Assembly (NCBI GenBank): GCA_003354005.1
Contig: PIWD01000001.1
Coordinates: forward strand, 19,489 to 83,488
Source of the DNA: Gammaproteobacteria bacterium
Lineage (GTDB): Bacteria > Pseudomonadota > Gammaproteobacteria > PIWD01
Length of the DNA stretch: 64,000 nucleotides
Direction: 5' to 3'
Part shown: one piece after another, positions 40,209 to 57,887 of the stretch
Position numbering within the stretch: the first letter of the stretch is position 1
Layout of the letters: the number at the start of each line of letters is the position of its first letter
Made by a program: the position numbers and the translations under genes
The notes under the pieces: generated by a model
Seen by the model: the letters and a program-made list of their open reading frames with translations, nothing else
The model's database searches: none
Told to the model about the DNA's origin: nothing

Positions 40209-42896
40209 TTATGCTAGCCCTTTTACGTTTACTGGCTCTATTCCGTTTCCAATGTTATTGTGCTGTATTTGTTGCATAGTGTCTTGACATAGTAGATTAC
40301 TAGCTGGCATGATTCCGTTTTGTGTGCCTTGTGCTTCTTTAGTTACTTCTTCAAAAATTTTCTGTATATTGTATCCCAATCTTCTGTTCAAAATAAATAT
40401 GTTAATGATTGTAAAAATAAGTATACCAATATTACAGCCTGCAACAAGTAGCGTTGGGGACATGCTTATACCCACTAAGATAAATATACCAGTAGAGCAT
40501 ATTAATTCAATGAGAAAGATAAGAAAAAGTAAATTCATAGTGATATTTTGAGTATTTCTAACACATTCTTCTGATCTGATAAGGGATAAGAGATCCTCTA
40601 ATCTTGGCAATTCAAACTCAGCACTACGCAATTTTGGGTTTCCGCCAATAGAGAAACCACATTCTGCCTCATGTATCATACTCTGGTCATTAGAACCATC
40701 ACCTACAGCCCAGACAGTGATAGCATCTTTTTTCAGATTCTTGACAAACTTTCCTTTCTCGGCAGGGGACTGTGAACATAAGGGACTTGGAAACCATAAT
40801 TTATGAAACTCACTAATATTACTATTTTTTTTAGCAGTACAGCTTTGAGGAAGTTTTTTGAAGACTGATCTAAAAAGTTTATTATATGGACTTTCTAGTG
40901 TAAGACTATCAGCACCACTTATTATCTGAACCTTTATGTTATTTTTTATACAATAAATAATGAGTTCTTCAGTAATAACTTTGGTATCTTCAGGGGTAAA
41001 GGAAAAGCTGGTATCTGCTAGTTGCTTAAAATTATCTTCACCTGTAATTTTTTTTGCGACATAGGATTGTTGTTTGTTGCTGTTTTTTGCGATGCAATCT
41101 ATACCATGGTTCCGCATATATTTTGAATTCCCAATAATTATCTCAGTGCCATCTTCGTACCTTCCGTGTACACCACTGCCATAACCTTCATTTTCTATTA
41201 TAGTTGCCTTTTGTTGCTTATACGTGAATTCCTTATCATTCATCTTCTTAAGTAACTCTTTGGAGATTGACATAGCATGTTGGCTTTCCTGTGTGCTTTC
41301 TAATGACAATATTTTTGACACGATGTCAGCATTTAATTTACTACCTATTTTAACATCCTCGGCATAAAGTGAGTTATTTTTTGCCAATGTGCCAGTCCAG
41401 TCAAAGCAGATAGTTTTTTTTCCAGTCCTATTTGTAATAGGAAGGTGTAAGGAATGTATCTCTCTAAACTTCAGGCCAAATTTTCGTAAGACGCTACTAG
41501 CATGGAAAATTGACGAATAAAAACCTACAAATATAGTTGTTGGACAGAAGGCATTAAGGCAAGTAATAATATGAACTAAGATAAAGAACGGCAAGTCTAG
41601 ACAAATACCAACTGTTACAACTATAGCTACCCCTATAAGCAAGGAAATACAAAAAAGATTTGGCCATATTTTTATCAATCCAGACCTTTTATCCTCAGTC
41701 TCAGCAAGTGATCTGTTTTGCTCATCTTTTTTGTTTTTTATGAGCTTATACCCGTTCTTCAATGCCTTGACTGTTATTGTGAAATTTGAGCAATTTTTAG
41801 CACCAAAATATAGTTCTCTACCCAATTGGCAAGCAAACTCCCCAGTTATCCCTGTAACATCTTTATTGTCAATATTACAGCTTATTGTTTCTTTTTCTTC
41901 AAACCTAATTATAGTGGATCTGATGGGAACTTTCTCACCAGGAGAAATATGAAGAATATCATCTTCCTTAATTTTTTTTACAGGTTTCCACATTACTGTT
42001 TTTTGCGAATTTTCTTTACATTCTACTTTTACAAACCGATTGTAATTGGTATATTCCATGTTAAATTTTTCTACTTTCTCTTTTGTACCTGGGTTACTAA
42101 GTGCTGCATCGATGACGAATCCAGCAAGTAGAGCAAAAAGACTGATAAGGGAAGGAATAAAGAAGGGAGTGGTAATGCCAGCTAATAAAAACGGAGTAGG
42201 ATATATGACTACAAAAATTGATACTATAAAAGGTATGAAGACTGTAAGTGCGCCAATGCAGTGAATGCCAGGAGGCTGGATGCCATTTTTTTTTCCTTGG
42301 AATATATTGAGTTCATTGCAAGCCTTTTTAAGGATTGGTAGAGATGTATAGAGGATGATAAGGCTCAAAGGTATCATGATCACAAAATAGCCTGGCATAC
42401 AAAAGAAGCTTGTTAGTAGGGACACCCAATTTAAAGATTCAGCTACTTTTAATAAGGCAATAGATGCGCCTACAAGAAAAGTACTTGTAAGGCTTGATTG
42501 TACTTTCCAATCCTCATAACAATGCAATGCTTCCGAAATTTCAATTTTGGCTTGATAATTATCAGTAGTAAGCAAGTGACCTCCCTTGAACTCAGGAATC
42601 TCACTCTCAGAGTCGATGCGGTAAACTTCTGGAAAGGGAAGCTTTTTTGAATAAGATGGCTTCTGATGTTCTCCAGTGAAATACTCTTTTATCCTGTTAA
42701 AAAAGCTTTTCTCTTCTTCCAATAAGCCGAGTCGTTGTATTTTGTAGTGGTAGCCATTGCCTAGAAAAGTATCTAGCTGAGTACTTACCTTTTTCTCCCC
42801 TATCTCCTTATATTCATACTTTTCATCCGTGGACATGCCACCTGCACCAGATTGGTGTTGAATACAAGAATAATAACTAAAGGTTTTTTGTGTCAT
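40209..42896 (-). CDS. Divergent P-type-ATPase-like membrane protein (TGE, D-W-TGTL, GDGSND motifs) with about 140-aa N-terminal extension
   Basis: 895 aa; TM pairs flanking actuator (ITGEF) and P-domain (CFDWTGTLA ... WAVGDGSNDQSM); CPT in a TM helix; lysine of DKTGT replaced by Trp. Confidence 0.6.
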   Translation of the reverse strand: MTQKTFSYYSCIQHQSGAGGMSTDEKYEYKEIGEKKVSTQLDTFLGNGYHYKIQRLGLLEEEKSFFNRIKEYFTGEHQKPSYSKKLPFPEVYRIDSESEIPEFKGGHLLTTDNYQAKIEISEALHCYEDWKVQSSLTSTFLVGASIALLKVAESLNWVSLLTSFFCMPGYFVIMIPLSLIILYTSLPILKKACNELNIFQGKKNGIQPPGIHCIGALTVFIPFIVSIFVVIYPTPFLLAGITTPFFIPSLISLFALLAGFVIDAALSNPGTKEKVEKFNMEYTNYNRFVKVECKENSQKTVMWKPVKKIKEDDILHISPGEKVPIRSTIIRFEEKETISCNIDNKDVTGITGEFACQLGRELYFGAKNCSNFTITVKALKNGYKLIKNKKDEQNRSLAETEDKRSGLIKIWPNLFCISLLIGVAIVVTVGICLDLPFFILVHIITCLNAFCPTTIFVGFYSSIFHASSVLRKFGLKFREIHSLHLPITNRTGKKTICFDWTGTLAKNNSLYAEDVKIGSKLNADIVSKILSLESTQESQHAMSISKELLKKMNDKEFTYKQQKATIIENEGYGSGVHGRYEDGTEIIIGNSKYMRNHGIDCIAKNSNKQQSYVAKKITGEDNFKQLADTSFSFTPEDTKVITEELIIYCIKNNIKVQIISGADSLTLESPYNKLFRSVFKKLPQSCTAKKNSNISEFHKLWFPSPLCSQSPAEKGKFVKNLKKDAITVWAVGDGSNDQSMIHEAECGFSIGGNPKLRSAEFELPRLEDLLSLIRSEECVRNTQNITMNLLFLIFLIELICSTGIFILVGISMSPTLLVAGCNIGILIFTIINIFILNRRLGYNIQKIFEEVTKEAQGTQNGIMPASNLLCQDTMQQIQHNNIGNGIEPVNVKGLA

Positions 42897-46410: not shown

Positions 46411-47910
46411 GTGGTAAGACAAGAGGCTTTTTATTTCAGTTGTGGTAGTTGGGATGGTGTAATGGATATTAGTTATTTCTTTAGTAGGGTGTTTCTTGTA
46501 CTGAGGTCTGTAAGTGATGCGCTTGCTACTTTAGTTCGCATGATCATTTTTGCACTTCTTACTCTTGCGATTCCAGTAGGTTTTGGAGTCGTTCTTGGGT
46601 TGACAGTAGGGCTTGGCTTTAGTATGTTATTTTATGTGTTTGATGTGCTATTTATCTGGAAGCTATATAGAGTCAATAGACTCTTTCCTATTGTTCTTGG
46701 TTATCCTAGAGCCCTCTCTCTTATCTCTTTAGTGTTTTTACATTTTGCTAGAGCATTGGGGTTCTGCTCAGAAATAGCATTTGTTTTTGCCCTTCTATAT
46801 ACCTCCAAGCTAATCATTTTCTATCTACTATGCCTAGCCGTATCGGCATGTGTTGGTTTGTTTGTGGGCACATTTTTAGGTATAGTTGTTTTTGCTTGTA
46901 TTTATAGAGAATATAGTGCATTAACTTTGGTCATTCCTCTTGTCTTATTCGCAGTTTTCATTTTTTTAATTTTCTTGTCACTATACTTTTCCTTTACTGG
47001 TTCAATTTTTGCTGTGAAATTGTGTGTGGGTTTCTGCTTTATTGTGTTTATCATTGAATGTAAGAAGTGTAAAATGTATTTACGGCATGCGTTATCTCTT
47101 GATTTTTGGTATGTAATACGTGAAATTCTACTTGGTGCCAGGGCTATTGAGTTATGGGCCGAGTTCTTGGGTTCAGGTCTTGTAGTTAGTAATATAGGCA
47201 GTAATAATAACGTGTTGAAAAATCTGTTGCTGGTAATGGATTCAGATGAAGATTTACAGTCTCTTCAATTAGTTACTTCAGATCAATTAGAGCAATTAGA
47301 TCAATTAGATCGATTAGAGCAATTAGAGCAATTAGAGAAGGAAATTCGATGTGGAATTTTACATGAGTTGCCAGATGCTCCTGTTAGAACAGGAGCTATG
47401 GTAGCTGTGTGTGGTTTAGAGTCTCTTATTAGGTGGTGTAGAGAGAAGGTTGACAGTGATGCTGCCATTAATGCTCCCATTATGGGAGCTTCTTTAGCAC
47501 TGCAAAAAATATACGTAGGCTACGGAATGGAAACTGTCAACTCTTTTTTTGATATTATTGAGAGTGATCAGGAGATACGTGGTATTTTAGGCATTGGAGA
47601 AGGAGTGAATAAAAATACATTCTGTAATAACTACATTAAAAAACGAAATGCTGTACAAAGAAAGATTAATGCTATACAAGGGGAGTTAATGGATGATGAA
47701 CAGATTGAAGAGCAAGAGCAAGGAGTAATAGTTGAGATAGAAAGTGAATACTGCCTTAATTTTCTTCAACAACAGGATCTCGCCCAGGAGGGATTTCAGC
47801 CCATTGCTGTACGCCCCCAGCCAGACATTGTACAGCAGTTCATTGATGTGGAAGTGCCTGCTGGGGGGCTTCCTAGTTTGCATTTAGGTGCTAGCTCTTA
47901 TTGGAGCTAA
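46411..47910 (+). CDS. Hypothetical polytopic membrane protein with C-terminal coiled-coil/acidic soluble domain; contains in-frame 9-bp tandem repeat
   Basis: About 230 aa of TM helices, then LEQLDQLDRLEQLEQLEKE encoded by (CAATTAGAG/T)n at about 47285-47340; start codon uncertain. Confidence 0.5.
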   Translation: MVRQEAFYFSCGSWDGVMDISYFFSRVFLVLRSVSDALATLVRMIIFALLTLAIPVGFGVVLGLTVGLGFSMLFYVFDVLFIWKLYRVNRLFPIVLGYPRALSLISLVFLHFARALGFCSEIAFVFALLYTSKLIIFYLLCLAVSACVGLFVGTFLGIVVFACIYREYSALTLVIPLVLFAVFIFLIFLSLYFSFTGSIFAVKLCVGFCFIVFIIECKKCKMYLRHALSLDFWYVIREILLGARAIELWAEFLGSGLVVSNIGSNNNVLKNLLLVMDSDEDLQSLQLVTSDQLEQLDQLDRLEQLEQLEKEIRCGILHELPDAPVRTGAMVAVCGLESLIRWCREKVDSDAAINAPIMGASLALQKIYVGYGMETVNSFFDIIESDQEIRGILGIGEGVNKNTFCNNYIKKRNAVQRKINAIQGELMDDEQIEEQEQGVIVEIESEYCLNFLQQQDLAQEGFQPIAVRPQPDIVQQFIDVEVPAGGLPSLHLGASSYWS

Positions 47911-50530: not shown

Positions 50531-50802
50531 ACATTCTCGTAGAGCAACAGTACACTCTAGATATGAGAATGAGGAAATCGTACGAATTTAGGATAAAGCC
50601 GAGTGCTGAGCAGGTCGCTCAACTAGGTCGGTTTTCGGTTTGTTGTCGCTTTGTTTGGAACAGGGTCACTTTAGTGGCTGGGCTACCGTGTTAGTCTGTG
50701 GAGAAGATGGTTGGCATCAGGTTTCCCTACAAACGAGTGATCTAGTAGTGACCTGAATCTCTATTCAGGAATCGCCTTCCTTTAGTGGGGGGGAGGATGT
50801 CA
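50527..50802 (+). mobile_element. Miniature IS200/IS605-family (TnpB-only type) derivative, copy 2
   Basis: TTGACA-N17-TACACT at 50528-50556; mini-ORF 50563-50694 MRMRKSYEFRIKPSAEQVAQLGRFSVCCRFVWNRV... = TnpB N-terminal HTH signature (YxFRxxPxxEQ...GxxRFVxN); 3' part conserved with copy 1. Confidence 0.65.
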
Positions 50803-50808
50803 ATTATC

Positions 50809-53694
50809 ATGGGAATACAAAGCGTGTCTGCTGATAATAACCAAAATTATAAAGAAACCTTAAATTTACCTGTCACCAATTTTCCGATGAAGGCTAATTT
50901 AGTACAGCGTGAACCTATACAGCTCAAACACTGGGAGAGCTGGAAGTTATATCAAAAGATGCAGCAAATAGAACCCAAAGAGCCTGTTTTTGTATTGCAT
51001 GATGGCCCTCCGTATGCCAATGGTGACATTCATATTGGTCATGCTTTGAATAAGATTCTAAAAGATACCATTATTAAATCCAAGCGGTTAGCTGGTTATG
51101 CAATTCATTATCGGCCAGGCTGGGATTGTCATGGTTTGCCAATTGAGCTTAATGTTGAAAAAAAAATTGGTCGTCCAGGCCAAAAATTGACAATAGAAGC
51201 TTTTCGTAAATATTGTCGGAAGTATGCTCAAACACAGCTCGAGAAGCAGCGTGATAGCTTTAAACGTCTTGGGGTTATAGGAGACTGGCAACATCCTTAT
51301 CGCACAATGGACTATGATTATGAGGCGAATACCATACGTGCTTTGGCAGATGTAGTAGAGGCAGGTTATTTATCGCGCAATTTTAAGCCAGTGTATTGGT
51401 GCTGTCAGTGTTGCTCGGCTTTAGCTGAGGCTGAAGTTGAATATATGCCTAAGACCTCGCAGGCGATCGATGTTGCTTTTACAGTTATAGACTCTTTAGC
51501 TCTCGCAGCTTGTTTTACCGATCAAGGCGCAGAACAATCAATAATGAGCTTATTGGAGGAGAGTCCCTTGGTATGGATTCCTATTTGGACAACAACACCG
51601 TGGACTCTATTATCGAATCAGGCGCTGGCTGTTCATCCCAATTATAAATACATCCTTCTGCAAGCTAGTTGGCGGGGGAAATCTATACGACTGATTATCG
51701 CTGAAAGTCGTCTTGATGCCCTGGTGTCACATTATCAACTTGAAAAATGCCAACTTTTAGGGAAGCTCCAGGGTAAGCAACTAGAGGGTCTTCTTGTGCA
51801 ACACCCATTGATTGAGAGGCAAGTTCCAGTAGTGCTGGCTGATTACGTGATGCTAGAAGATGGAACGGGTATAGTGCATACGGCACCCGCACACGGTGAA
51901 GATGATTATTGGACAGGCAAAAAATATGATTTGCCGATTACAACACGTCTTAAAGATAATGGCGTATTTGAAGATGAGGAGATTTTTGTGGGTGGTCAGC
52001 ATTTTAGTAAAGCTGATTACTTCATGATCAATCAATTGAAAGAAAAGGGGTGCTTGTTGCAACAAGCCGTAATTGAGCATCGTTACCCACACTGTTGGCG
52101 TCATAAGAAGCCCATTATCTTTAAGGCAACCCCGCAGTGGTTTATTCACCTTGATCATAAAGGACTACGAAAACGTGCCTTACAGGCAATTCAAACAATT
52201 GAATGGATACCTGGCTGGGGTCGTGAGCGTATGCAGAAGATGTTAACTGATCATCCTGATTGGTGTCTTTCACGACAGAATCGAGCTTGGGGGACACCCA
52301 TGGCTCTGTTGCGTCATAAAGAAACTGATGAATTGCATCCTGAAATGCCAAAAATTATGCGAAAAGTTGCCGATCAGGTAGCAGAGAAGGGGATTGATGC
52401 CTGGTCACACTTAAGACTTGAGGATTTGCTGGAACAGAATGAAGTAGCAAGTTATATTAAAGTCGATGATACGCTAGATGTATGGTTTGATTCTGGTGTC
52501 AGTCATACCTGTGTGTTGACAAAAGAAGAGGGCTTGACACTTCCCATTCAACTTTATTTGGAAGGTTCTGACCAATACCGTGGTTGGTTTCAATCCTCAC
52601 TACTGACCTCGCTCATGTTACAGCCACAAGTAGCTTATCGCTGTGTACTAACTCACGGTTTTACGGTGGATGCTACAGGACATAAAATGTCGAAGTCATT
52701 AGGTAATACTATTGCTCCACAAAAAATTGTTCAAAAATTTGGTGCAGATATACTACGCTTGTGGGTTGCATCTGCTGATTATCGTGCTGAGGTGGCAATA
52801 TCTGATGAAATTTTAAGTCGTCTTGTAGATATTTATCGACGCATACGGAATACGGTTCGCTTTTTATTTGCTAATACAGCAGATTTTGAAGTGGGTAAAC
52901 ACAAGATTGCAATTGATGATTGCCTTGAACTTGATCGTTGGATTATCCGTTATGCAGCTAATTTACAGAGCAAATTAGAAGAAGCTTATGCAGCTTATCA
53001 ATTTCACTTGGTTGTCAATGAAGTTCATCAATTTTGTAATCAGGTATTGGGACACTTTTATTTAGACATCATCAAAGACCGACAGTATACCTTGGCCAAA
53101 AATAGCCGAGCACGTCGCTCAGCCCAAATGACCATGTACCATGTCTTACAGGGATTAGTGCGTTGGATTGCTCCGATCTTAAGCTTTACAGCAGAAGAGA
53201 TTTGGAGTTATATGCCAGATGTACTGATGCAATCGGTCTTCTTATCCAACTGGTATAATTTTCCAAGCAGTAAACTCAAACCATCGATCAGTGATCAAAG
53301 CTGGGATTACTTTTTGATGGTCAAAGAATCTGTAAATCTAGCCTTAGAGTCCTTGCGTAGCAGTGGGGGAATCGGCTCTTCGCTACAGGCACGTGTAAAC
53401 CTATATGTTGATCAGGAAGGCTATGCACATTTAGAACAACTCCATGATGAATTACGTTTTCTGCTTATTACCTCAGAAGCACACTTAGAGAAAGACACAA
53501 AACGTCCCAAACAAGCAAGTGCAACAGCGCACAAGGGGCTTTTCTTAATGGTTGAGCCAGTTGCCCACAATAAATGTATACGTTGTTGGCATTATATTGC
53601 TGATGTTGGGCAGAACCAGAAGCATCCCCAGCTATGTCAGCGTTGCATCATGAATTTAAGCCTTAGCAATGAAGAATCGCGTTATTATGTCTAG
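50809..53694 (+). CDS. ileS: Isoleucyl-tRNA synthetase
   Basis: HIGH (PYANGDIHIGH) and KMSKS motifs, C-terminal Zn-binding Cys; start ambiguous (GTG 50785 / ATG 50797 / ATG 50809). Confidence 0.9.
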   Translation: MGIQSVSADNNQNYKETLNLPVTNFPMKANLVQREPIQLKHWESWKLYQKMQQIEPKEPVFVLHDGPPYANGDIHIGHALNKILKDTIIKSKRLAGYAIHYRPGWDCHGLPIELNVEKKIGRPGQKLTIEAFRKYCRKYAQTQLEKQRDSFKRLGVIGDWQHPYRTMDYDYEANTIRALADVVEAGYLSRNFKPVYWCCQCCSALAEAEVEYMPKTSQAIDVAFTVIDSLALAACFTDQGAEQSIMSLLEESPLVWIPIWTTTPWTLLSNQALAVHPNYKYILLQASWRGKSIRLIIAESRLDALVSHYQLEKCQLLGKLQGKQLEGLLVQHPLIERQVPVVLADYVMLEDGTGIVHTAPAHGEDDYWTGKKYDLPITTRLKDNGVFEDEEIFVGGQHFSKADYFMINQLKEKGCLLQQAVIEHRYPHCWRHKKPIIFKATPQWFIHLDHKGLRKRALQAIQTIEWIPGWGRERMQKMLTDHPDWCLSRQNRAWGTPMALLRHKETDELHPEMPKIMRKVADQVAEKGIDAWSHLRLEDLLEQNEVASYIKVDDTLDVWFDSGVSHTCVLTKEEGLTLPIQLYLEGSDQYRGWFQSSLLTSLMLQPQVAYRCVLTHGFTVDATGHKMSKSLGNTIAPQKIVQKFGADILRLWVASADYRAEVAISDEILSRLVDIYRRIRNTVRFLFANTADFEVGKHKIAIDDCLELDRWIIRYAANLQSKLEEAYAAYQFHLVVNEVHQFCNQVLGHFYLDIIKDRQYTLAKNSRARRSAQMTMYHVLQGLVRWIAPILSFTAEEIWSYMPDVLMQSVFLSNWYNFPSSKLKPSISDQSWDYFLMVKESVNLALESLRSSGGIGSSLQARVNLYVDQEGYAHLEQLHDELRFLLITSEAHLEKDTKRPKQASATAHKGLFLMVEPVAHNKCIRCWHYIADVGQNQKHPQLCQRCIMNLSLSNEESRYYV

Positions 53695-54436: not shown

Positions 54437-55948
54437 ATGGTACAATTGGCAACATTACAAACACGTGCTTTAGTCGGTTTGCAGGCACCTTTAGTTGTGG
54501 TGGAAGTACATATTTCTAACGGGTTGCCAGCTTTTTCTATGGTTGGATTGCCAGAGAAAGCTGTGCGTGAGAGTAAGGAGCGTGTGCGCAGTGCCTTATT
54601 AAATAGTGGCTTTAAGTTCCCTAATCGTCGTATTACCGTAAATTTAGCACCTGCAGAGTTCCCAAAACAGGGTAGTCGCTTTGATTTAGCGATTGCATTA
54701 GGGGTATTGATTGCAACACAGCAATTGAGGTGTGAGACGATCTGTGATTATGAATTTATCGGAGAATTGACTTTGTCGGGACATCTACAACCCGTTTATG
54801 GGGCATTATCTACTGCACTTGCGACTACCAAGTTAGCACGTTCATTAGTGTTGCCTAAAGAAAATGCTGAGATTGCTTCATTGGTCGTGGATGCCTGTAT
54901 TTTGCCAGCTAACCATTTATTGGAGGTTTGCCAACATTTGACAGAACAGAAAGCTCTAACAATTTTCAAAGCGGAGCAGGTAATTGATAAGCCTTCTGGT
55001 CAAGAAAATAAGCTTGATTTGGCTGATGTGCAGGGTCATGCACATGCGAAGCGAGTCCTCGAAATTGCTGCTGCTGGTCAACATAATTTGCTAATGGTAG
55101 GACCACCTGGAAGTGGCAAAACCATGTTGGCGCAGTGTCTGCCATCGATTTTGCCTGATTTAAGCTCCATACAAGCCTGTGAAGTATTGAGTATCTATGC
55201 CTTACGTCAGAAATTAACCAATCGACAAAAAGAGGTGCCATTCCGCCAGCCACATCATAGCAGTTCGATGCAGGCATTGGTAGGTGGTGGTTCACCACCA
55301 CAACCAGGTGAGATTTCTCTAGCACATCACGGTGTATTATTTCTGGATGAGCTAGGTGAATTCACAAGAAATGCGTTAGAAGCTTTACGTGAACCCATGG
55401 AGCAGCGCGAAATTAATATTGCACGCTGCGGATACCACACAACTTTCCCTTGCAATTTTCAACTGATTGCAGCAATGAATCCATGTGCTTGCGGATATAG
55501 TAATAGTTCCCAACCCTGTCGTTGTGGTATTGCTGCCCTTAGGCGTTATCAGCAAAAACTTTCTGGGCCACTGATTAATCGGTTTGATTTGCAGGTTGAT
55601 GTGCCCATCCCTGATTTAAAAAAATTACGCATGGCTTCGGTTTTATCGCATGAGAGTAGTCAAATTGTTAAACAGCGTGTTGTTGAAGCGCGTCAACGAC
55701 AAGAAAAGCGCCAAAAAATATTGAATGTAGCACTGAATAACCGTATGTTAAAAAAAATGATTCAATTGACTGATACAGGTGAGTCATTTATTGATCATAG
55801 CGTACAAAAATTAAATATTTCACCCAGACGATACTATAAAATGTTAAAAGTAGCACGCACAATCGCTGATCTTGACGATTGTACACAAATTAACCAACAG
55901 CATTTGAGTGAAGCACTTGGCTTGCAACCGATATGGCACGAGTTTTAA
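54437..55948 (+). CDS. comM: YifB/ComM family Mg-chelatase-like AAA+ ATPase
   Basis: 503 aa; Walker A GPPGSGKT, Walker B LFLDELGEF, C-terminal Mg-chelatase ChlI-like region. Confidence 0.8.
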   Translation: MVQLATLQTRALVGLQAPLVVVEVHISNGLPAFSMVGLPEKAVRESKERVRSALLNSGFKFPNRRITVNLAPAEFPKQGSRFDLAIALGVLIATQQLRCETICDYEFIGELTLSGHLQPVYGALSTALATTKLARSLVLPKENAEIASLVVDACILPANHLLEVCQHLTEQKALTIFKAEQVIDKPSGQENKLDLADVQGHAHAKRVLEIAAAGQHNLLMVGPPGSGKTMLAQCLPSILPDLSSIQACEVLSIYALRQKLTNRQKEVPFRQPHHSSSMQALVGGGSPPQPGEISLAHHGVLFLDELGEFTRNALEALREPMEQREINIARCGYHTTFPCNFQLIAAMNPCACGYSNSSQPCRCGIAALRRYQQKLSGPLINRFDLQVDVPIPDLKKLRMASVLSHESSQIVKQRVVEARQRQEKRQKILNVALNNRMLKKMIQLTDTGESFIDHSVQKLNISPRRYYKMLKVARTIADLDDCTQINQQHLSEALGLQPIWHEF

Positions 55949-56020
55949 AGTAATATTAGGTTGCTGATGGGTTAATAACAGGATTAAATAATCTATTATA
56001 AGCTGAGATAATCTATACTT

Positions 56021-56143
56021 ATGAGACGATTTGTCAAAATAGGTGAAGCAGCAAGGCTTTTGGGCTCAAATTCCTCGATATTCAGAAAGTGGGAGTCAAC
56101 AGGGGAGCTGCAACATGCAAAAAACAAGAAATTTCCCAGATAA
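56021..56143 (+). pseudogene. Truncated MerR/AlpA-type HTH (excisionase or IS607-TnpA N-terminus-like) ORF remnant
   Basis: 40-aa ORF MRRFVKIGEAARLLGSNSSIFRKWESTGELQHAKNKKFPR*: I.EAA.LLG.S...(I/L).RW...G.(L/F)P pattern of phage Xis/AlpA HTH; ends before the expected C-terminal wing. Confidence 0.4.
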
Positions 56144-56303
56144 TTAAAAAAATAGTAATGTGACAAAATATGGCGTGGAGTTAGCATGCATGGGGGACGA
56201 TGAACCTGTCGATTTTTATACGAACTGATTAATAGTTAGACTCCCTTCATTTAGTTTTTGAAATATGCCAAATTTTTCCTTGCAAAGTGTAAATTATTTG
56301 TAA

Positions 56304-56777
56304 TTGGGTGAGGGATGGGACTTCCTAGTGGTGTGTCTCACTATTTTGGCATTTATGTTTAATGAAGTTTATGCGGTATTTAAAAATATGTTTGGAAAGA
56401 AAAAGAATAATAATAAGAATAATAAGAATAATAAGAATAAGAAGGATGAGGTTGCTGAGGCTAATGCTAGGGCTAAGAAGGCTGAGGCTAAGGCTAATGT
56501 TGCTGCACCTAAGAGTAGTAAGACCTGGAAAGCAAGTATTCTTGGTATGCTTAGGACATTGTCACTTGGGGAATGGAGCGCATGGATACTAATGCATGTG
56601 CTTTACAAATCATCGGTGCTTATACTTATTGCAGTTACACTTATCATTGCTGCACTTTTTATGTCACCAGGGGCTGTGGTATTCATAGTACCGGCTTTCT
56701 TTGCTATAGTGGGTGGCGTTGTACTGCTCGTCTGGATAGGCAACTGTATGCACAATATTGTTGGGGGGGAAGGCTGA
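56304..56777 (+). CDS. Hypothetical small membrane protein with Lys/Asn-rich low-complexity N-terminal region
   Basis: 157 aa; KKKNNNKNNKNNKNKK encoded by (AATAATAAG)n-like repeat at about 56400-56440; KAEAKAN; two C-terminal TM helices. Confidence 0.4.
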   Translation: MGEGWDFLVVCLTILAFMFNEVYAVFKNMFGKKKNNNKNNKNNKNKKDEVAEANARAKKAEAKANVAAPKSSKTWKASILGMLRTLSLGEWSAWILMHVLYKSSVLILIAVTLIIAALFMSPGAVVFIVPAFFAIVGGVVLLVWIGNCMHNIVGGEG

Positions 56778-57324
56778 TTATGAGAACAAAAATTTAAAGG
56801 CTAGCCATCTGACAATTTTAGTGGCAGGTATACTTGTTATTTTGGGTATCATTCTTTTTGTTCTACAACCTTCGTTAGTGATAGTAGCTCTCATGTTTTT
56901 TGTTGTGTGCTTTCCAATTTTATTAACAAGCTTCTTTATGTCCTCCAAGCAGGATACGAGTTCTGAGATTAAGAATATCACCTGTATCAATATCAATGGG
57001 ACGCAGATTCTAGTAAATGGCGCTCCTATTGTTGTAGGTGGCGCTCCTATTGTTGTAGGTGGCACTCCTAAGGTTAAGGATAATAGTACCTCCTCCTTGG
57101 TAACAGAGCCTCGCCTTGTTCCGATCCCACAAAGTAAAGATGATATTTTCCCGCAGTTCTTTGCCCCCACCCCCATCGCCTTCGTGAACCAAAATAATGG
57201 CCAACAAAATCAAGCCGACGTTGCTCCCTTCAACTCGAACAAAAAAGGTGGTTGGGACTCCCACCCAGTGGAAACAGGTGGCGTAGCAAGTAAGGGGGAA
57301 AGTTTGTGGGAGGGCAACAAATAA
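56758..57324 (+). CDS. Hypothetical membrane-anchored protein with duplicated GAPIVVG motif
   Basis: 188 aa; N-terminal 2 TM; 21-bp tandem duplication GGCGCTCCTATTGTTGTAGGT x2 at 57018-57059; Gln/Asn/Gly-rich tail. Confidence 0.4.
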   Translation: MLGGKADYENKNLKASHLTILVAGILVILGIILFVLQPSLVIVALMFFVVCFPILLTSFFMSSKQDTSSEIKNITCININGTQILVNGAPIVVGGAPIVVGGTPKVKDNSTSSLVTEPRLVPIPQSKDDIFPQFFAPTPIAFVNQNNGQQNQADVAPFNSNKKGGWDSHPVETGGVASKGESLWEGNK

Positions 57325-57341
57325 TCATTCTGTAATTTTAT

Positions 57342-57371
57342 CCGACATTCAGTACTATATTTGAATGTCGG
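57342..57371 (+). terminator. Hairpin (10-bp stem) candidate terminator
   Basis: CCGACATTCA-gtactatatt-TGAATGTCGG. Confidence 0.4.
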
Positions 57372-57632
57372 GTAAGTTTGCCCTTGTTAACTAAGGGATA
57401 AGAATATATTCTAATTTTATTTTTCTCAACCAGTATAGATATCACTAATATTCTAAGATAATTCTTGCCCAACAGTTCAATAAGCTTCTTCTGTGGTGCT
57501 GAATGCCGTTTAATACATATTGTTTTAGCAATAAGAATCCTTTTTTGGAGAGTAGAGGATGTCAGCTAGACTAAGTCAAACTATTTAACTATAATACTGG
57601 TTTTGGTTTTTATGAACAATAAGGAGTCAGTT

Positions 57633-57887
57633 ATGTCTAGAACAGTTGAAGAACGTGTGTGTATGGTTGTTACCGAGCAACTTAATGTTAAAGAAGAGCA
57701 ACTTGCTAATAAAGATGTTTCTTTTATTAAAGATTTAGGTGCTGACTCACTTGATACGGTAGAGTTAGTGATGGCACTTGAAGAAGAGTTTAATACAGAA
57801 ATTCCTGATGAGGATGCTGGAGCAATTACAACACTTCGTGAAGCAATAGCTTATATCAAAGCAAATGTTAAACTTGACACTGACTAA
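57633..57887 (+). CDS. acpP: Acyl carrier protein
   Basis: [20 protein letters not shown] phosphopantetheine-attachment motif; start placed at MSRTVEERV. Confidence 0.9.

Follow-up and report, generated by a model that had tools for sequence, protein, structure and literature searches.

The 1.65-kb gap between comM and acpP in the window analysed here (a whole stretch of 64,000 nucleotides from contig PIWD01000001.1 of a gammaproteobacterium) is ordinary accessory DNA, without a demonstrable integrated island. Its contents are better explained as a mosaic formed where gene order was broken, a rearrangement junction, than as a discrete island, and we hold this reading with moderate confidence; the pieces would be a stub of an IS607-family transposase gene, a 181-bp repeat block, one split gene for a membrane protein, a terminator and the promoter of acpP. 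A preliminary description of the interval had listed a 40-codon open reading frame (ORF), two larger ORFs of 157 and 188 aa, simple repeats and a hairpin, all of which are present. It did not mention a run of seven G residues (G7) at the junction of the two larger ORFs, here called ORF1 and ORF2, or the 181-bp repeat that the interval has in common with positions 62618-62801.

Read in this way, the interval would open directly after comM with the defunct start of a tnpA gene of the IS607 family, of which only the first ~34 codons would survive. The TnpA homology ends exactly where the 181-bp block starts, and the block would have been moved there by duplication or recombination. A lineage-specific gene of ~338 codons would follow. 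Its predicted product starts with a helix, continues with a segment rich in Lys, Asn and Ala and then two transmembrane hairpins, and has a tail that would be disordered. The G7 run would throw the second half of this gene out of frame, and one G fewer would give the full-length protein. Translation of ORF1 (149 aa) would then rely on a good ribosome-binding site, and ORF2 would be without one of its own. In-frame repeats of 9 and 21 bp would alter loop length only, a strong hairpin would close the unit, and acpP would start from its own promoter. The homology of the stub, the repeat, the geometry of the G7 run, the orphan status of the ORFs and the transmembrane hairpins are established by the analysis, whereas the existence of a single gene, what the block does and the order of these events are read from the arrangement of the pieces.

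One gene or two at the G7 run

ORF1 occupies 56304-56777 on the forward strand (157 aa) and ORF2 occupies 56758-57324 on the same strand (188 aa from a TTG start). The longest forms overlap by 20 nt, whereas the source annotation begins them at GTG codons at 56328 (ORF1, 149 aa, P0004) and 56821 (ORF2, 167 aa, P0001), which leaves 43 nt between them. The two overlapping small membrane proteins of the preliminary description are thus present as reading frames, but they are probably a single species-specific gene for a membrane protein of ~338 aa, split by an extra G. Two annotated "hypothetical proteins" may therefore be one frameshifted gene.

One line of argument is the geometry of the junction. 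ORF2 is shifted by +1 with respect to the frame of ORF1, and both frames are open together only over the 36 nt at 56740-56775. The G7 homopolymer (56763-56769, forward strand) falls exactly within this doubly open stretch, in which altering a single base can join the frames, and editing the sequence in silico by removing one G or by adding two gives a continuous ORF of 338 or 339 aa. Slippage at the G7 run could toggle the gene. Translation signals point in the same direction: the GTG at 56328 has a strong Shine-Dalgarno (SD) sequence (-8.1 kcal/mol, within the top 5% of positions), while the values at the candidate starts of ORF2 are -2.0, +0.7 and -2.3 kcal/mol, where the mean of the null is -2.2, such that none of them has an SD.

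The predicted architecture would also fit one protein. ORF1 begins with a hydrophobic helix, continues through a Lys/Asn-rich and an Ala/Lys-rich region and ends in a transmembrane hairpin; ORF2 begins with a transmembrane hairpin and ends in a 120-aa tail that is modelled at low confidence and is probably disordered. In single-sequence AlphaFold2 models, whose helical hairpins are of high or moderate confidence, ORF1 is all-helical, with helices at residues 80-110 and 114-145, and ORF2 has helices over residues 2-41 with a predicted local distance difference test (pLDDT) score of ~90 and a remainder below 50. Hydropathy of the fused product places hydrophobic segments at 6-27, 92-150 and 163-215, and its two hydrophobic hairpins repeat the layout of the product of a neighbouring orphan gene, P0125, described below.

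The strongest alternative, although in our judgement an unlikely one, is that ORF1 and ORF2 are independent genes for small membrane proteins in a two-gene operon and that the G7 run is incidental. This is how the source record annotates them, as two separate coding sequences (CDS). Both frames carry coding signal, which speaks for the single gene as well, with a log-likelihood of +0.12 per codon for ORF1 and +0.17 for ORF2 (core genes have a mean of +0.24 and a minimum of +0.146). Many window genes are without an SD, among them several bona fide ones with no recognisable site, and the missing SD of ORF2 is for this reason weak evidence. There are only two runs of seven or more G or C in the 64 kb (56763-56769 and 50787-50793), and our estimate from base composition is that ~1.5 would occur by chance. 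No homologue with the fused architecture appeared in the protein searches. The annotation, the other genes without an SD, the chance expectation and the missing homologue weigh against a single gene; set against the two-gene operon are the absence of an SD at any start of ORF2, the placement of the G7 run within the 36 nt and the likeness of the fused layout to P0125.

If ORF1 and ORF2 are one gene, the frameshift could reflect phase variation or a fixed pseudogene, or could be an assembly or sequencing error within an intact ~338-aa gene. The genome is a draft (the contig is 92,499 bp) and homopolymer indels are a common class of error, but seven G's is short for homopolymer errors on short-read platforms, and we regard the sub-case of an error as improbable.

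Two tandem repeats lie within the same coding region. The Lys/Asn-rich stretch of ORF1 is encoded, as had been proposed, by a microsatellite, an imperfect 9-bp repeat (AAGAATAAT, 5.3 copies with 87% matches, 56397-56444, forward strand) that is in frame and is translated as KKKNNNKNNKNNKNKK. The exact 21-bp duplication reported in ORF2 is likewise there, with copies at 57019-57039 and 57040-57060 and a partial third that brings the whole to 57019-57070 (forward strand), and it too is in frame, reading APIVVGG APIVVGG TPKV. Repeats within coding sequence, as contingency-type genes would have them, are therefore real, but units of 9 and 21 bp are multiples of three and can change the length of a product without switching the gene on or off. 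Of the repeats, only the G7 run can cause a frameshift.

Two further ORFs were considered as genes and rejected, in both cases for want of coding signal and of any family: an antisense ORF of 132 aa (56778-57176) and an ORF of 63 aa (55996-56187).

An IS607 transposase stub after comM

The 40-codon ORF (56021-56143, forward strand, with homology over 56024-56122) is, to judge from its sequence, a relic of the N-terminal MerR-type helix-turn-helix (HTH) domain of an IS607-family serine transposase. In a tblastn search of a 7.3-Gb plasmid collection its first 33 residues aligned N-terminus to N-terminus with a protein of Paraburkholderia sp. PGU19 at 21 of 33 identities (64%, E 8e-5). The target is a 201-aa ORF that scores 213 bits on the NCBIfam model NF033518 (IS607 family transposase, cutoff 110), and a TnpB gene follows it. 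In the reverse search, PGU19 TnpA found a sole match in the window, of its residues 3-35 at 56024-56122 (E 2e-7). Transposases of this family have an N-terminal DNA-binding domain of the MerR family (PMC4058570); the stub contains the HTH without the wing.

Nothing else of the element was recovered. The full-length TnpA search of the window found no serine-recombinase catalytic domain C-terminal to the HTH, and no match to a TnpB remnant was listed (matches at E < 2 over the whole window, and all matches within 55.9-57.7 and 61.8-63.2 kb). The stub also lacks both coding signal and an SD, does not occur in the protein collection and has no CDS in the source record. It is the lack of coding signal, SD, annotated CDS, catalytic domain and TnpB remnant that marks the stub as a relic.

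The preliminary description had offered two origins for this ORF, the N-terminal HTH of an IS607 TnpA or that of a phage excisionase of the Xis/AlpA type. The evidence favours the first over the second, and in a Pfam scan of the 40-aa ORF at E <= 1 neither AlpA nor HTH_17 appeared. Several profile results are less favourable to the IS607 assignment. The Pfam family MerR_1 matched at E 0.013, below its gathering cutoff; all PHROG matches were sub-threshold, with a transposase family (phrog_6620, E 0.044) close to two excisionase families (E 0.055 and 0.26); and a sequence search of the PDB matched no chain. The weak phage matches of the stub are themselves IS607 transposases.

Compared with intact elements of the family, the stub agrees in the 64% identity of its first 33 residues with a bona fide TnpA and departs from them in that only ~100 nt survive, with no catalytic domain, tnpB or definable ends. 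Elements of this family have neither terminal inverted repeats nor target duplications (PMC6188088), and none is seen at the interval, which is compatible with an IS607 origin but uninformative. For the same reason the lack of attachment (att)-like repeats says nothing about the stub.

It should be noted that near-identical intact IS607-family elements (tnpA + tnpB) are present on two Paraburkholderia sp. PGU19 records, NZ_AP023181.1 (locus L084, 2995-4805) and NZ_AP023182.1 (locus L085, 2947-4805). No gene is listed at either position in the PLSDB tables.

The question of an integrated element

In gamma-proteobacteria acpP is usually linked to fabD and fabG, in the order fabD-fabG-acpP. Neither gene is encoded by the ten ORFs that were scanned for them or by the other scanned ORFs of the window, in agreement with the earlier remark that 1.65 kb intervenes where fabG and fabD normally precede acpP, and the usual linkage is thus broken here. 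The IS607 relic, which is unannotated, marks the break.

The main proposal of the preliminary description, that all 1.65 kb were left behind by an integrated phage or island with contingency-type membrane-protein genes as its cargo, now appears quite unlikely. In its favour are the presence of a mobile-element gene fragment, the orphan ORFs with simple repeats inside their coding sequence, and a codon usage in the interval ORFs that fits less well than that of core genes, with GC content at third codon positions slightly raised. The fragment, however, derives from a cargo-less insertion sequence, as IS607 elements carry tnpA and tnpB only (PMC6188088), and the hallmarks of an island are missing. 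Pfam, NCBIfam and PHROG scans and the TnpA tblastn found no remnant of a tyrosine or large serine integrase in the interval. No attL/attR-type direct repeats bracket 55949-57600 above the level of short chance matches, no tRNA that could be a target lies near (the closest are at 36.1-36.3 kb), and the 181-bp block of the interval recurs ahead of P0125 without an adjacent transposase remnant. Searches of phage and plasmid DNA gave no match. The claim of atypical sequence was overstated, since the interval has a GC content of 38.4% against 40.7% for the window and a trinucleotide distance at the 87th percentile of same-sized windows; its composition is mildly unusual rather than a clear outlier.

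Orphan status does not point to an island either, because ORFs without a Pfam family are common across the window: there are six others among the scanned ORFs, of 919, 895, 623, 499, 341 and 214 aa. In a word-indexed search of 5.8 billion proteins ORF1 and ORF2 matched only themselves. A full HMMER search of 1.84 billion representatives with ORF2 returned ORF2 itself and P0124, a 2733-aa repeat protein whose 13 matching stretches at 26% identity were rejected as compositional. Scans of both ORFs in Pfam, NCBIfam, PHROGs and PADLOC, and of the fused protein in Pfam and NCBIfam, gave nothing near cutoff; a lead to TIGR01620/YcjF (E 0.0012) was dropped because a scan of the fused protein failed to lengthen the match.

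The lineage has no close relative in the collections searched and is apparently rich in orphan genes. All proteins of the contig that were looked up are singleton clusters, and the exact-sequence look-up of encoding contigs returned none for ORF1, ORF2, ComM or P0001. The nearest ComM, at 66% identity, is metagenomic. Its gene has different neighbours on a contig of 9 kb that stops 80 bp past comM, and those 80 bp are unrelated to the sequence found here. ComM relatives in metagenomes are not syntenic, and the ComM proteins of GTDB representatives reach at most 50% identity in a ComM scan of genome contigs.

Some of the other orphan ORFs have features of their own. The 919-aa ORF (3055-5814, reverse strand, no Pfam family) consists mostly of tandem repeats, whose period is 114-129 bp (~38-43 aa) and whose copies are up to 96% identical. 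The ORFs of 895, 623 and 341 aa (40209-42896, reverse strand; 25915-27786 and 27901-28926, forward strand) have no Pfam family at E 1e-6, and the region at 40.3-42.9 kb is among the most compositionally deviant of the window.

A repeat block upstream of two orphan genes

The first copy of the 181-bp block (56119-56299, forward strand) starts at the end of the TnpA homology and reaches to 29 nt from the annotated GTG start of ORF1 at 56328. The second copy (62618-62801, reverse strand) is inverted relative to the first and lies ~6 kb away; in a blastn comparison of the interval with the window, 56119-56299 and 62801-62618 form an alignment of 185 columns that is 86% identical (E 1e-56). Between them the two inverted copies bracket ORF1 and ORF2, acpP, fabF, mltG, tmk, holB and P0125. 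P0125 (61902-62546, reverse strand) is an orphan gene for a 214-aa protein with two pairs of closely spaced transmembrane helices and no Pfam or PADLOC family, and the second copy of the block is ~70 nt upstream of it. Each copy therefore stands just upstream of an orphan gene that encodes two transmembrane hairpins. Despite this, the two products show no detectable relationship, as the BLASTP match between P0125 and the fused ORF1 and ORF2 (E 0.10) is confined to hydrophobic stretches.

We infer from this placement that the block may serve both genes as an upstream promoter or leader, or else may be a small repeated element. A function of this kind finds no support in the block itself: no promoter consensus is common to the two copies, and two copies are all that are seen, both within the window. 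RNA folding of the block was no better than that of shuffled sequence (z +1.0 and +1.1), and no Rfam family corresponds to it. In the Rfam searches generally, a match to CrcZ (22 bits against a cutoff of 95) was rejected as an artefact of A-rich repeats. The block has no DNA match in plasmids or phages and nothing was found in a viral scan; a metagenome search with one 20-mer seed from the block gave three chance seeds that did not extend. Alignments that would lengthen the repeat upstream (a second HTH remnant) or downstream (a start codon) were gappy and dependent on method, and no claim is made from them.

In a more ambitious interpretation, the block would act as an expression cassette common to the members of a lineage-specific, variable family of membrane proteins, with at least one member switched by poly-G. 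Its members would have two transmembrane hairpins in common and wholly different bodies, with lengths varied by in-frame repeats, and the inverted copies could mediate inversion of the essential acpP-fabF-mltG-tmk-holB block; all of this we consider speculative and improbable. Should the G7 run be polymorphic and the block multi-copy, the locus would hold a small variable family of membrane proteins; should they not be, it would be ordinary accessory DNA.

The weakest of the alternatives treats block and stub as one IS607 relic with an internal deletion, its 3' part being the guide-RNA (omega RNA) and right-end region. This would suit the block's position beside the tnpA stub in the same orientation, and IS607 elements have an RNA at the right end along with TnpB. 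Against it, the block does not fold more stably than its shuffled versions and has no Rfam match, no C-terminal coding remnant of TnpB is present and no significant transposase remnant lies upstream of copy 2; we regard this reading as very improbable.

Two observations near the block stand on their own. The ends of the block make up an imperfect inverted repeat of 13 nt (10/13) at 56124-56136 and 56289-56301 in copy 1 and at 62796-62784 and 62630-62618 in copy 2. Between the copies one position has changed at the two ends in concert, copy 1 having ACAA...TTGT and copy 2 ATAA...TTAT. The sequence is AT-rich, and this repeat, noticed by eye, may be due to chance. On the far side of copy 2, an open frame at 63051-64000 (forward strand) runs past the end of the window and contains a metzincin-type zinc-binding motif, HEIGHVLGLKHP, with a weak match to Matrixin (E 0.003, below cutoff). 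It is divergent from P0125, and copy 2 of the block lies in the intergenic region that they share.

Likeness to known variable-protein systems

The closest parallel for the G7 run is found in the phase-variable (contingency) genes of host-adapted bacteria, in which a homopolymer switches expression. As in those genes, a poly-G run sits in a gene for a membrane protein, a single base separates the truncated from the full-length product, and in-frame tandem repeats occur in the same gene. There are differences, in that a tract of seven G's is rather short for slippage to be efficient, the run here is known from one sequence, and the product is predicted as a membrane protein only.

A second parallel is with variable membrane proteins and lipoproteins of the vlp/vsa type in Mycoplasma, families in which a conserved 5' region precedes divergent, repetitive bodies. 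The two genes here would resemble them in having an 86% identical block upstream of bodies that are unrelated or have diverged beyond recognition, and one of the two has in-frame repeats. Unlike in those families, only two copies are seen, the conserved part is non-coding, and neither a shared signal peptide nor a promoter homopolymer is present.

The predicted protein also resembles the inclusion membrane (Inc)-type proteins of intracellular bacteria, which have paired, close transmembrane helices with very short loops and low-complexity flanking tails. The fused protein has hydrophobic segments at 92-150 and 163-215, in keeping with the bilobed hydrophobic domain of 40-60 residues of such proteins, and the AlphaFold2 models show helical hairpins. 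The NCBIfam match to GarD, an inclusion membrane protein of chlamydiae (E 0.063), however, is far below cutoff and reflects hydrophobicity alone, and the window contains no secretion genes.

The acpP upstream region and neighbouring genes

The hairpin that follows ORF2 lies at 57337-57376 (forward strand), 13 nt past the stop codon. It had been described with a 10-bp stem, whereas the stem found is 16 bp, with a folding energy of -28.2 kcal/mol (z -6.7) that none of 200 shuffles matched in stability. It is likely a transcription terminator, though without a clean U-tract. Downstream, a promoter-like site (TAGACT-17-TATAAT, 57567-57595, forward strand, 10/12 matches) is positioned 38 nt upstream of the acpP ATG, and acpP has a strong SD (-8.8 kcal/mol); acpP thus appears to have its own predicted promoter. 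Between the hairpin and this site are two 29-nt direct repeats (57406-57434 and 57448-57476), 72% identical and 42 nt apart, which may be operator sites or may be due to chance.

On the comM side, the longest ileS ORF (50785-53694) is followed by lspA and comM (54437-55948, forward strand, Mg_chelatase E 2e-85). The second G7 run of the window (50787-50793) is at the extreme 5' end of this ileS ORF, which begins at GTG 50785, and the true start of ileS is probably a downstream ATG. On the other side, acpP (57633-57887, PP-binding domain) is followed by fabF, mltG/yceG, tmk and holB.

Elsewhere in the window, the 499-aa orphan ORF (46411-47910, forward strand), which is annotated by NCBI, forms a singleton cluster and has no Pfam family, contains at 47280-47337 a 9-bp in-frame repeat (AGAGCAATT, 6.4 copies), a microsatellite of the kind found in ORF1. 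Near the start of the window, a gene for a ComEC-type competence channel, with Competence and Lactamase_B domains, is present at 425-2923 (forward strand). Together with comM, this gene suggests that the organism may be naturally transformable.

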